DNA from: Escherichia coli
Lineage (GTDB): Bacteria > Pseudomonadota > Gammaproteobacteria > Enterobacterales > Enterobacteriaceae
Assembly: GCF_003018115.1 (NCBI RefSeq)
Contig: NZ_CP027458.1
Strand: one strand, 5' to 3'
DNA length: 64,000 bases
Positions 22,301 to 28,300 of this stretch are shown here, piece by piece. Positions within the stretch are counted from its first letter, which is position 1. Each line of letters begins with the position of its first letter. Position numbers: made by a program.

Positions 22301-25300
22301 CTCATCAATAGATGAAGTAAACCTCCCGTATCTACACATCCTGAATGCCAACTACGAACATAACTCCCCCCCCTCACTTAGCCAATAATCCCACTTTCCA
22401 ATATATGTCAGCAGTAAATAACCTCATAAATGACGAGAAAAGTTGTCGCAAGGTCCATCTAACGATGATTAGGTGATGACAAAATAACCAATATAAGTGA
22501 TCTGAAAAGCTTTCCTTAACACTGTAAATGCAGCCAAATCAACACCTCAGGCTCTTCTGAAAGAAAAAAGCCATCATATATATGAGTAAAAATCATACAA
22601 CCAACACTATTCAATAACATTTAATTAAGAAAAATAACAATGAAACGATTCAGCAAACATTTCCAACTAGAAAAATACTTTATATATCCCTTCCGGTTTT
22701 ATGAACGAGACCTGATCTCTCCTGGAGAGGCAAATGTAAATTTGTCACACAGACGACAGCAGCCGGAACATTACAAATGCCGCCTGACAGACCAATAACA
22801 ACAGTAATGATGCTGAATTTGTTTTCATTGAGGAAATGACATGCACCAATACCTGCTTTTTTTACTGGGACTTACCCCACTTTTGACAATGATCATTTTG
22901 ATTCTGAAAGTCAAAATGCCCATACATTATGCCGTACTCAGCACACTCTTTATTACACTGATTCTTGCAATTTTGTTCTGGCACACACCAGTTCAGGACC
23001 TGGGCTCTGCTGTTGTATACGGAGCAATCAAAGGTCTGTGGCCGATAGTAATAGTCATACTTGCGGCCATTTACAGCTATAACCTGATGAATGCGACAAA
23101 AAGCATGAACATTCTGCGAAATGTTCTGGCCGGTGTCAGTGATGATAAACGTATCCAGGTGCTTCTTATCTCATGGTGTTTTGGTGGATTTCTTGAGGCG
23201 GCGGCTGGGTACGGTACAGCTGTAGCAATCCCCATTGGTATACTCATTGCTCTGGGCTTTAACCCTCTAAAAGCCGCAATTGCATCATTGGTTGCTAATA
23301 CAGTACCTACCGCGTTTGGTGCTGTCGGCATACCTGTATCAGTACTTGCTGAACAGGTAAATTTACCCGTAACAACCCTCAGTGGGACGATTATTCTTCA
23401 GTTGGCAGCGTTCAACATTCTGCTTCCCTTCGTTATAGTCGCTATTATTGGGGAAGGCCTGAAGGCTATACGAGGCGTTGGGTTCATGACCTTAATGTGC
23501 GGTGTGAGCACATTAATCCCACAGTATCTGATGGCTGTTTATCTTGGCGCAGAACTTCCGGCTTTCGCTGGAAGTCTGGTCAGCCTGATCGTTATTGTCA
23601 TTATGGCTAAAAGCCGTAAAGAAAAAACAGAACCAGAATTTCTTATTGAGGTTTCAGGAGATAGCGCTGGTGCACTTTCATATTCCCGTGGGGAGTTGTT
23701 CCGGGCCTGCTCAATCTACATCCTGATTTTTCTGTTTATTCTTCTTTGCTCTCCATTGTTCCCGACTGTAAAAAGTGCAGTATCTCAGGTTGCTTCGTCA
23801 CTCAGCTTCCCTCTGACTGACGGCAACAATCTGTCTATGACGCTCGAATGGATCGCAACCCCCGGTGTTCTGATCATCATTGCCAGCGTTATTGGCGGAT
23901 TGATTCAGAAAGCATCTATGTCATGCCTGTTAAACGTATTTGTCAGTACGGTAAAACAGCTCAAAAACTCCATTATTGCTATTTCTGCAATTGTCGCTAT
24001 GGCAACGGTAATGGATATTTGTGGGTTAATTGGCACACTGGCACAGAGCCTTGTGGATCTGACAGGTGGAGCCTACCTCTTCATTGCTCCAGTTATAGGT
24101 GCTCTTGGTACATTTGTTACTGGCAGTGACACAAACTCCAACATTCTGTTCGGTAAGTTGCAGACTACTGCGGCTGAAAAGTTGCACGTAGATCCACTCT
24201 GGCTGGCTGCTGCAAACACATCTGGCGCGACCGGTGGCAAGATGATTTCTCCCCAAAGTATTGCTATCGCTGTTTCTGCCACACGTATGGATGGTCAGGG
24301 CAGCGTCATTATGTCCGGGACACTGAAATACTGCTTTGTCTATATTGTTATCCTTGGACTGAAAATAGGCCTGATCTACCACCTGTTCATGGTCTGAGAA
24401 AAGAGCAACAAAAGGACATGGGATATTAATCAACAGGAGATATTTCTGTGAATGTTAACTTTTTCGTCACCTGCATTGGTGATGCTTTTAAATCCCGGAT
24501 GGCTCAAAACAGCGTGCTGTTACTGGAGCAATTGGGTTGCAATGTCCATTTTCCCGAAAAACAGGGATGTTGCGGTCAGCCAGCGATAAATGGCGGTTAT
24601 GTTCGTGATGCCATCCCGGGCATGAAAAACGTCATATCTTCGCTGGAAGAGAATGACTGGCCAGTTATATCTCCCGCGGGATCATGCACCTACACGATAA
24701 AAAATTATGCTCATTATCTCAGTGATGAGCCTGAATGGGCTGCTCGGGCTGAAAAAGTGGCTGAACGTCTGCATGATTTGACATCCTTTATCGTAAATCA
24801 TCTCGGCATCACTGATGTAGGAGCAAGACTCAATGGCCGTGCAGTGTACCATCCTTCATGCAGCCTTTCCCGTAAACTGGGTGTAACCAGAGAACCGCTT
24901 TTGCTGCTTGAGAATGTGCGGGGACTTGAGCTGCTGCCGTTTCATGCTCAGGAAACGTGCTGCGGGTTTGGCGGCACGTTCTCTGTAAAAATGGCGGAGA
25001 TCTCTGGTGAAATGGTGAAAGAGAAAGTCGGGCATATTATGGATGTTAAACCTGATTTTCTTATCGGGGCTGACGCCAGTTGCCTGCTAAACATCGGCGG
25101 TCGGCTTAACCGTGAAGGGCATCCTGTAAAAGTGATGCATATTGCTGAAGTCCTGATGCACAGATGAGGTAAACAGAATGTCTTTGAAAACAAGTGATAT
25201 CAGGTTTAAAGAGCGTATCCGTATTCAGATTCAGGATCCGATCATGCGAAAAGCTGTTGCTAACGCACAGGAGCGCATAGGGACTAATCGGCAGAAAATG

Positions 25301-28300
25301 GTTGATGAACTGGGGCACTGGGAGGAATGGCGTTCACGTGCTGAACAAATTCGTCGGCATGTTCTGGAAAATCTTGATGCCTATTTGTATCAATTGTCCG
25401 AAAAGGTTACTGCGAATGGCGGGCATGTATATTTTGCCCGTACCAGAGAGGATGCAACCAGTTACATACTGAAGGTGGCGAAAGAAAAAAACGCCAGGAA
25501 GGTTGTTAAATCCAAATCAATGGTGACTGAGGAAATTGGCATGAACGCCGTTCTTCAGAAAGCCGGGATACCCGTGATTGAAACAGACCTTGGGGAATAC
25601 ATTCTTCAGCTTGCACACGAACCGCCATCACATGTGGTTGTTCCGGCAATACATAAAGATCGCCATCAAATCCGCAGAGTGTTAAACGAACATCTGGGGT
25701 ATGAGGGACCAGAAACTCCTGAAGCAATGACATTGTTCATTCGAGAGAAAATCAGACAAGATTTTCTCAGTGCAGAAGTTGGTGTAACGGGATGTAACTT
25801 TGCTGTTGCAGAAACAGGGTCAGTCTGCCTTGTTACAAACGAAGGCAACGCACGTATGTGCACCACATTACCTAAAACACATATTGCTGTTATGGGGATG
25901 GAGCGTATTGCTCCGACATTCCAGGAGGTGGATGTTCTTATTACCATGCTTGCAAGGAGTGCTGTCGGGGCCAGACTGACGGGTTATAACACCTGGCTTA
26001 CAGGTCCAAGAGAAGAAGGACATGTTGACGGCCCGGAAGAGTTCCATCTCGTCATTGTTGACAATGGGCGTTCAGAGGTTCTCGGCTCAGAATTCAGCGA
26101 TGTATTGCGCTGTATTCGCTGCGGTGCCTGTATTAATACCTGTCCCGCTTATCGCCAGATTGGTGGACATGGCTATGGCTCAATCTACCCGGGCCCAATC
26201 GGAGCAGTTATTTCCCCGTTGCTTGGTGGCTATGAAGACTTTAAGGACTTACCTTATGCCTGTTCATTGTGCACTGCCTGCAATGGGGTATGTCCGGTAA
26301 AAATACCTCTGGCACAACTAATACAAACACATCGGCAGGTTATGGCAGAGACCAAAATAACACCATCAACAGAACGCCGTATAACAGGAATATTCAATTA
26401 CGTAAACAGTCATCCGGCATTGTGGAAAGTTGGCATGATTGCTGGCGCGAAAACAGCCAGTCTGTTCATCAGGAAAGGAAAAACGCCGATTAGTGTTGGA
26501 GCGATAAAAGAATGGACTGAAGCCAGAGACCTGCCATCACCTGATGGAGAAAGCTTCCGTAGTTGGTTCAAGCGACATAAGAAGGAGGGGTAATTTTATG
26601 GAAAACAGAGAGGAATTTCTCGTTGCGATCGCCAGAAAGCTTGGCAGACCAGTAAGACATATTCCCGAAGCAATGCCGGAGCCTGTAAATACGCTGGCTA
26701 CAACACGTTTAACTGAGTTGACATCAGACCAACGCTGTGAGGCGTTTATTAAATTTGCCTCGGAAGTGATGCTTGCCGAGTGTGTTCTGGTGTCGCCTGA
26801 GAACGCACCATCAAAAGCCTTAGACATCTGTTGGAAGTTCGGTTCCGGGCCAGTCATTATCAGCAACGATCAACGACTGGTCGATACAGGGATTACGCCA
26901 TTGCTACAAAAAGAAATGGGCGCTGCTCTGTGGGATCCGGAGAAGGGCGATGAAAATATCCATATTGCTGAAAAGGCAAAAACTGGTGTTGTTTTCGCTG
27001 AGTATGGGCTGACAGAATCAGGAGGCATTGTCTTATTCTCCGCACCAGAACGTGGGCGCTCAGTAAGCCTTTTGCCTGAAGCATCATTATTTGTTTTACG
27101 TAAAAGCACCATTCTTCCCAGAGTGGCTCAGCTTGCGAAGAAACTTCATGATATGGCTCAAAAAGGACAACGAATGCCTTCCTGTATCAATATAATTGGA
27201 GGACCAAGTTCAACTGCCGATATAGAGTTGATTAAAGTTGTCGGTGTTCATGGCCCTGTATATGCAGCCTATCTAATCATTGATGACTGCAAATAACAAT
27301 TATCCTCATGCCTGAGCCAATATATATAGTTCCGGCTCAGGCATCATCATTTTCATCTGTTATTTTCTCTATCAGCCCCAAATTTTCCTGTGATGTCGCA
27401 TCGGTTGAAAGTCCAACAAGCGCATTAGACATTAAAGCGTAAGCATCAACGGATGCGCCATATTGACAAAAAACGTGGCGGCCGACAATGAAAAGTAAGC
27501 GCTCCGTCTGTGACGTTTTGTGATGGTTGTCCTATCTGGCTACAATCGCGTCCATCGATATTAAAGTGCGCCCAGATCCTGGACAACTTATGCTGCCTGA
27601 CTCAATCGATATTGTACTGGGCTAAGACCGCCAAGTTTTTCCTTTATCCTCAATTAATTATAATTGTTTATGTAATCGATGATGTCTCGCTTTAAGCCCT
27701 CCACATTTTTATATTCATTGAGGTAATAACATTCTGATTTCAATGTTCCCAAAAAGCTCTCTATAACTGCATTATCAAGACAATTTCCCCGGCAAGACAT
27801 ACTCTGGACTATGCCGCTATCCTTTAACCATCGTTGCCACCGGGACATCTGATATTGCCAACCTTGATCGCTGTGCAGTATGGGGTGTTCATCTTTCGAC
27901 AGCTGTTTCAGCTCATCCGTAAACATAGTCGGCACCATTGAAGGTTTAGAACGAGTAGCGAGGTTATAGGAAATTATTTCTCCATTATAAAGATCCATGA
28001 TTGGCGATAAATACAGCTTCTTGCCATTAACTTTAAATTCAGTGACATCTGTAACCCACTTCTCGTTGGGGCATTTTGCATCAAAAACTGATAATCCCGG
28101 AAACGTACTTAAGGGCAGAGGGGGACCGCCTTCTGCCCTTTAATAAACAGGATATTAAGATTACTCGCCCAGGACTGCCAGTATCAAAAATGCACCTGCA
28201 GTAAGCATGGCAAGTTTTTCCCATACAATGGGACTGTCATCCCTCTTTTGTTTTCTTTTTCTCATATAAATGATGGTGTTTACTCAGACGCGAGAGTATT

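Follow-up and report, generated by a model that had tools for sequence, protein, structure and literature searches.

A probably functional, horizontally acquired L-lactate operon found on pO113-like plasmids and chromosomal islands of Escherichia coli

We analysed a 64,000-nt stretch of the Escherichia coli contig NZ_CP027458.1 (assembly GCF_003018115.1), referred to here as the window, in whose positions all coordinates are given and which represents a pO113-like enterohaemolysin plasmid with an IncF backbone. ORF (open reading frame) calling identified four intact, co-directional genes at 22841-27296 on the forward strand, in the order permease-lutA-lutB-lutC. We put the probability at roughly 80% that this module is a functional, horizontally acquired L-lactate operon (lutP-lutABC), a foreign counterpart of the core E. 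coli genes ykgEFG that circulates on plasmids and chromosomal islands and is probably activated by the host regulator Cra (FruR). The module is a known accessory operon, with existing annotations on 64 plasmids and some 130 chromosomes, and is largely ordinary as such. Three points we did not find discussed in the literature searched: the phylogenetic evidence of a foreign origin, together with strong purifying selection, the finding that plasmid and chromosomal-island copies recombine with each other, and a Cra-type promoter box that core ykgEFG lacks.

Gene content, divergence and origin of the module

The sequence-only reading of this stretch had proposed a complete permease-lutA-lutB-lutC set, and this proved to be so, with all four ORFs scoring above the curated cut-offs of their families (coordinates in Table 1). 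The permease matches Pfam Lactate_perm (PF02652, E=1e-130) across model positions 3-519 of 522 and scores 408 bits against TIGR00795 (LctP; cut-off 341), which places it in the LctP family (TC 2.A.14). It falls below the equivalog cut-offs for both LldP (NF007740, 275 versus 918) and GlcA (NF007249, 249 versus 1121); it is an LctP-family protein, but not an orthologue of LldP or GlcA. LutA contains two CCG domains (PF02754 twice, E=2e-31), and its cysteines C9, C41, C42, C80, C138, C171, C172 and C212 are invariant in an alignment with the K-12, pO113, Pectobacterium and Proteus proteins. LutB reaches 722.5 bits against the LutB/LldF equivalog TIGR00273 (cut-off 444.8) and matches PF02589, PF13183 and PF11870, with both of its CxxCxxCxxxCP motifs (residues 312-323 and 362-373) invariant. 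LutC matches PF02589 at 96.6 bits (cut-off 22.6) and none of the NCBIfam models.

The genes are closely packed, with intergenic gaps of 50, 10 and 4 nt in operon order and Shine-Dalgarno sequences at the gene junctions; lutABC are contiguous and co-oriented in the order A-B-C. For lutC, the ORF-finder start at 26544 was rejected, as it would overlap lutB; the ATG at 26598 was chosen because it is preceded by AGGAGG and yields a length that fits the pO113 (232 aa) and K-12 YkgG (231 aa) proteins. Just beyond lutC, a stem-loop with a moderately U-rich tail is a candidate terminator; it folds at -20 kcal/mol (z = -5.6), a stability that none of 200 shuffled sequences reached, and its position lies outside the core that is common to the island copies.

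The same reading had described the proteins as clearly diverged from chromosomal YkgEFG and LldP and had suggested acquisition from another lineage, and both statements hold. Amino-acid identity to K-12 is 77.4% for LutA-YkgE, 83.4% for LutB-YkgF, 65.4% for LutC-YkgG and 35.7% for permease-LldP; at the nucleotide level, lutABC and ykgEFG share 70-72% (blastn), and dS between lutA and its K-12 counterpart is about 2.7, i.e. saturated. Core ykgEFG itself lies at rclR-ykgH and has no adjacent permease. Of 5426 complete E. coli genomes, 5229 (96%) contain it, and it is at least 95% identical to the K-12 genes in all but 64 of 5258 matching records. The core proteins and those of the module are members of one three-subunit family, agree in domains and cysteine motifs, and presumably carry out the same chemistry.

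To place the module, we inferred a neighbour-joining tree from the concatenated LutABC proteins (953 columns, 25 taxa, 300 bootstraps). K-12 YkgEFG grouped with Citrobacter at 100% bootstrap, the pattern expected from vertical descent. The copies from the window, pO113, two chromosomal islands and Escherichia sp. MOD1 formed a separate mobile clade, also at 100%, which fell outside a 99% group of Enterobacteriaceae, Erwiniaceae, Pectobacteriaceae, Yersiniaceae and Hafniaceae representatives, and which was sister to K-12 YkgEFG in 0 of 300 replicates. By neither within-species identity nor sister placement does the module therefore resemble a vertically inherited orthologue of ykgEFG. With the mobile clade thus separated from YkgEFG in the tree, we take the module to be a xenologue (a foreign copy) of ykgEFG and not a duplication, with a lineage of origin that is either unsampled or fast-evolving.

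A search for the donor, in which the permease was compared with 100,044 species represented by one genome each, found none outside Escherichia, the best permease match being 77% (Edwardsiella, Pectobacterium); for the other proteins the best identities outside Escherichia were 80% (LutA), 84% (LutB) and 69% (LutC). The gene order, by contrast with the sequence, is an ordinary chromosomal arrangement in many Enterobacterales. More than 30 Enterobacterales species have it on their chromosomes, including Edwardsiella, Pectobacterium, Samsonia, Dickeya, Mixta, Serratia, Kosakonia, Proteus and Budviciaceae, and it also occurs in Sutterella; order and strand are both identical in more than 25 enterobacterial species, and in Citrobacter, the permease is oriented divergently. 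These operons (those of Edwardsiella, Pectobacterium, Serratia, Dickeya and Proteus, for example) are like the module in order and strand, but they are vertically inherited and chromosomal, and match the window at no more than 77% (permease) and 84% (LutB). Further related systems are Bacillus subtilis LutABC/LutP, Shewanella LldEFG and Helicobacter pylori LldEFG-LctP.

Alleles, recombination and distribution

The segment common to plasmid-type and island copies spans 22793-27301, with the homology ending 5 nt past the lutC stop codon. Over this core, the window is 93.8% identical to the copy on the chromosome of strain cM8a (locus L004), and 91.8% and 92.0% identical to loci L005 and L007, respectively. 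A sliding-window comparison divided the core into blocks. The permease and the first part of lutA (22793 to about 24600) match pO113 at 100%; the remainder of lutA, with lutB and most of lutC (about 24750 to about 26990), matches the cM8a island allele at about 100%; beyond about 26990 the window differs from both. The window copy is thus a recombinant of plasmid-type and island-type alleles, and because it is a mosaic of the two its best overall database match is only 97%.

The closest known systems are pO113 (NC_007365) and the pO113-type ehx plasmids of E. coli strains that produce Shiga toxin (STEC) and lack the enterocyte-effacement locus (LEE), which carry the same four genes in the same order. 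The pO113 permease and LutB are 99.8% and 99.6% identical to those of the window in amino acids. Unlike in pO113, the 3' half of lutA, lutB and most of lutC in the window are of the chromosomal-island allele, and the window LutC is 91.8% identical to that of pO113 versus 97.8% to that of strain cM8a. The lutP-lutABC-hsdMSR islands of extraintestinal pathogenic and uropathogenic E. coli (ExPEC and UPEC) fall into the same mobile clade as the window; for sequence type (ST) 127 UPEC, such an island has been described, with an oppA fragment, lutP, lutABC and hsdMSR beside tRNA-Phe, as horizontally acquired (PMC9769692). Unlike the window copy, the island copies are chromosomal and adjoin type I restriction-modification genes and an oppA fragment; their permease allele differs from that of the window by 8% in amino acids (dS about 0.5), and their leader segment differs as well.

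All four genes bear the mark of selection on protein sequence. Pairwise between alleles, dN/dS is 0.03-0.13, over dS values of 0.15-0.56, the maximum of 0.56 being that between the plasmid-type and island-type permease. Since dN/dS is low despite dS of up to 0.56, this indicates that the module has been under long-term purifying selection.

A survey of PLSDB with the 5-kb region as query recovered the module on 64 plasmids, pO113 among them, with query coverage of at least 80% on 60 of the 64 and all four genes annotated as intact in the 30 plasmid records listed. Sixty-two of these plasmids are from E. coli and two from Salmonella, so the module has spread beyond Escherichia. Among complete E. 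coli genomes, about 130 chromosomes carry it at 89-94% nucleotide identity, in islands with the virulence genes iha and sat, type I restriction-modification genes, an oppA fragment and insertion sequence (IS) elements. Permease fragments of about 500 bp are also found; these are decayed relics, the module being often lost. One example lies at 5997-6506 of locus L006, on the chromosome of E. coli GN04096, and is 86% identical to the permease at the nucleotide level. Our searches of the literature on pO113 and lactate, and on lactate permease and ehxA, found no paper discussing the plasmid copy, and the module goes unmentioned in the paper on the pO113 sequence and in those later genomics papers on LEE-negative STEC that were accessible.

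The upstream region, the proposed function and its alternatives

An alignment of five Escherichia alleles revealed, upstream of the permease, a block (about 22608-22690) that has stayed conserved amid diverging surroundings and which contains the palindromic Cra-type box aaTGAAACGATTCAgc (core TGAAACGATTCA). The core of the box is the sole exact TGAANCGNTTCA in the window, where 0.12 would be expected by chance, and the box is the window's only zero-mismatch match to RSTGAAWCSNTHHW, which we take to be the degenerate Cra consensus. It also fits the published Cra motif gcTGAAtCGaTTCAgc / ctgaAtCGaTtcag (PMC5888115). Of 40 Enterobacterales loci, 26 have the box upstream of the permease, compared with a single match in the remaining 1.12 Mb of those loci, used as a control; it was seen in every genus sampled outside Morganellaceae and Budviciaceae. 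In 15 loci, it is followed after 28-29 nt by TATAAA, TATAAG or TATATA, an architecture of box, spacer and -10 element that the window has in common with Edwardsiella, Pectobacterium, Samsonia, Serratia, Dickeya, Mixta, Intestinirhabdus, Kosakonia and Escherichia sp. MOD1. The box is absent upstream of K-12 ykgE.

These matches make Cra the probable binder of the box. Cra sites that lie over the -35 or -10 element repress (pfkA, tpiA), and an active Cra goes with expression of the gluconeogenic genes ppsA and fbp; the ppsA Cra site is centred at -45.5. In the module, the centre of the box is at about -46.5 relative to the predicted transcription start site (TSS), just upstream of the weak -35. 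From this position and the known Cra sites, we infer that Cra would activate the module under gluconeogenic conditions, as would suit a lactate operon. The module contains no regulator gene, no LldR/PdhR operator (AATTGGTNNNACCAATT) was found near it, and the related chromosomal operons of Pectobacterium and Edwardsiella have no recognisable adjacent regulator. Between the promoter and the ribosome-binding site there is an allele-specific extra leader, present in the window and pO113; the island alleles have other sequence in its place, and Escherichia sp. MOD1 lacks it. The fold of 22690-22845 is no more stable than that of shuffled sequences (z = -0.43). In plasmid-type alleles only, CTTAATTAAATGTTA occurs on the reverse strand at 22615-22629, 12 nt upstream of the Cra-type box. 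It has one mismatch to what we take to be the ArcA-box consensus, GTTAATTAAATGTTA (0.17 expected per window), and is a weak lead for which we make no claim.

Taken as an operon, the module would work as follows. The LctP-family permease would import lactate by proton symport, and an iron-sulfur complex of LutA, LutB and LutC would oxidise L-lactate to pyruvate and pass the electrons to the respiratory chain. The module circulates among pO113-type ehx plasmids and chromosomal pathogenicity islands, its alleles recombining; it has no regulator of its own and has kept a predicted ancestral promoter with a Cra-type box, through which host Cra would probably switch it on at low glycolytic flux, i.e. 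when gluconeogenic substrates such as lactate are in use. Its probable specificity for L-lactate is argued by analogy with characterised relatives. An E. coli ykgEFG mutant has an L-lactate-specific fitness defect in anaerobic culture with nitrate (PMC9701030), and H. pylori requires lldEFG and the neighbouring lctP to take up L-lactate and grow on it (PMC4117512). In the PDB, no structure of LutABC or LctP was found, the sequences matching only an HdrC-like ferredoxin domain and a structural-genomics LUD-domain protein.

Several points weigh against this reading. The tree was made by neighbour joining from 25 taxa, and if sequences on mobile DNA evolve faster, the mobile clade could look more basal than it is. 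For the promoter, other LacI-family regulators recognise similar CG-centred palindromes; the left half-site, an intact TGAA in the window, is mutated to CGAA in the pO113 allele (CGAATCGATTCA); the -35 hexamer is poor; and a generic scan for sigma-70 promoters and terminators gave counts not above those in shuffled sequence. For a benefit to the host, lldPRD in E. coli and ykgEFG in 96% of genomes may make the module redundant; in mouse colitis models it was LldD that mattered, core YkgEFG being dispensable (PMC9701030). Moreover, about 690 genomes hold only the IS-truncated permease fragment of about 500 bp, between iha and sat, and such frequent decay in ExPEC islands argues against a universal benefit.

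The points on benefit are also what favours the strongest alternative, namely that the module is a neutral hitch-hiker, intact by recent descent and of no measurable fitness gain to a host whose lldPRD, dld and ykgEFG already cover lactate use. To the redundancy, the permease truncations and the dispensability of ykgEFG, and of dld with it, in mouse colitis, this explanation can add the absence of a dedicated regulator and the rarity of the module relative to ehxA (64 versus 576 PLSDB plasmids). Against it, the dN/dS and dS values speak of long-term purifying selection and not of recent descent, the cysteine motifs, ribosome-binding sites and promoter box have all been kept, the module persists in two genomic settings that are independent of each other, and its reading frames have survived recombination. 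We regard neutrality as unlikely.

Less probable still, and in our view quite improbable, is that the main substrate of the permease and the LutABC-like complex is another 2-hydroxy acid, for instance D-lactate or glycolate. E. coli and H. pylori do have LctP-family carriers that move these two besides L-lactate (PMC4117512), the permease lies outside the LldP and GlcA equivalogs, and the active site is unreadable without a LutABC structure; but LutB scores far above the cut-off of the L-lactate-oxidation equivalog TIGR00273. Finally, a recent capture or duplication of host ykgEFG with a permease picked up by the plasmid, of which near-identity to the chromosomal genes had been named in advance as the sign, is already refuted: the gene family and the lutABC order are those of ykgEFG, but nucleotide identity is 70-72% in a species whose ykgEFG copies are nearly all at least 95% identical, lutA dS is saturated, YkgEFG groups with Citrobacter and never as sister to the mobile clade, and the core genes have neither an adjacent permease nor a Cra box.

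Plasmid setting and significance

A probably functional L-lactate operon of foreign origin thus remains the preferred reading, and its setting is that of a virulence plasmid, as had been supposed from the sequence alone. pO113 is colinear with the window over 22510-29700 at 96.8% identity, and ehxA, a Sab-like adhesin and a serine protease autotransporter (SPATE) are found in common with pO113-type plasmids. The placement of the operon between an adhesin locus and IS remnants was likewise confirmed, with a Sab/YadA-like adhesin upstream and an IS3-family remnant downstream (Table 1). ehxCABD occupy 8132-15873, followed by a gene with an OmpA/BamE domain; farther downstream of the operon there are small hypothetical genes and then the SPATE. 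pO113 has like neighbours, with a Sab-type adhesin and a PapB-like regulator upstream and small hypothetical genes and a SPATE downstream. The backbone of the window is of IncF type, as judged from traI/traD genes and the Rfam families CopA, sok, AS-traI, AS-traG and AS-pc02, whereas pO113 has been typed as IncFIB/IncI-gamma with an MPF_I transfer system; in the window, the same accessory region therefore sits on a different conjugation backbone.

Table 1. Features of the operon and its surroundings, in window coordinates
Feature	Coordinates	Strand	Remarks
Sab/YadA-like adhesin	17128-21441	-	1437 aa
PapB-family regulator gene	21457-21738	-	between adhesin and operon
Cra (FruR)-type box	22639-22654	+	12-bp core at 22641-22652
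Weak -35, CATTTC	22658-22663	+	poor
Predicted -10 hexamer, TATATA	22681-22686	+	28 nt past the box; predicted TSS about 22693
Allele-specific extra leader	22691-22790	+	about 100 bp; between promoter and ribosome-binding site
Core common to plasmid-type and island copies	22793-27301	+	blastn
LctP-family lactate permease (lutP-like)	22841-24397	+	518 aa; GAGGAA before ATG
lutA (ykgE-like)	24448-25167	+	239 aa; GTG start, AGGAG 8 nt ahead
lutB (ykgF-like)	25178-26593	+	471 aa; LUD domain, two 4Fe-4S motifs, LutB_C
lutC (ykgG-like)	26598-27296	+	232 aa; LUD domain; AGGAGG ahead of ATG
Stem-loop, candidate terminator	27308-27344	+	11-bp stem just 3' of lutC
IS3-family transposase remnant	27654-27998	-	partial rve, rve_2 and rve_3 domains; only 114 aa
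SPATE ORF	29648-33811	-	1387 aa; ORF-finder start may precede the true start

We also considered whether the module is a discrete transposon or an IS-bounded composite. This was rejected: a search for terminal inverted or flanking direct repeats found no pair bracketing 22500-27400, and the single IS3-family remnant lies on one side only. A whole-window Rfam scan found no family in or beside the module; its matches (45986-46075, 46883-47038, 48295-48437, 53369-53445 and 62757-62842, to CopA, sok, AS-pc02, AS-traI and AS-traG) are plasmid-backbone RNAs only. Between the PapB-like regulator gene and the lactate module there is an A/C-rich low-complexity tract of about 230 bp (21760-21990), with an AT skew of +0.38 and overlapping degenerate repeats.

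Other parts of the plasmid have histories of their own. The ehxA gene (12360-15374) is 100% identical to that of O91 STEC plasmids such as CP015246, in comparison with the 97% best match of the lactate module, so this plasmid mosaic is absent from PLSDB and from complete RefSeq E. coli genomes. The hypothetical genes downstream (28592-29344) are about 72% identical to hypothetical genes beside iha in chromosomal islands (L005 4655-5405; L006 4296-5037). A SPATE stands near both contexts, in the window at 29648-33811, where its counterpart on related plasmids is annotated as EpeA or EspP, and as sat in L006. These resemblances suggest a larger ancestral mosaic common to the accessory region of the plasmid and the iha-sat island of ExPEC.

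For the biology of E. coli, the finding is one of a foreign module kept under purifying selection beside virulence genes in two pathotypes, whose Cra-type box would plug a mobile operon without a regulator into the host's sensing of glycolytic flux. The proposal that a plasmid-borne lactate module has a role in colonisation is a reasonable hypothesis: bovine intestinal content contains lactate, and enterohaemorrhagic E. coli induces lldRD in it (PMC4041753). Much more tentatively, and with the odds clearly against it, the module may be a 'metabolic virulence' trait, a self-sufficient, Cra-activated cassette for L-lactate respiration that is co-inherited with adhesins and toxins, is exchanged between plasmids and islands by recombination, and gives LEE-negative STEC and ExPEC a colonisation advantage beyond that of lldPRD and ykgEFG. 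Host-derived lactate fuels E. coli, Salmonella and Vibrio during gut inflammation. If the proposal is true, the niches in which the cassette would confer a measurable advantage are lactate-rich ones: the inflamed gut, the bovine intestine and urine.

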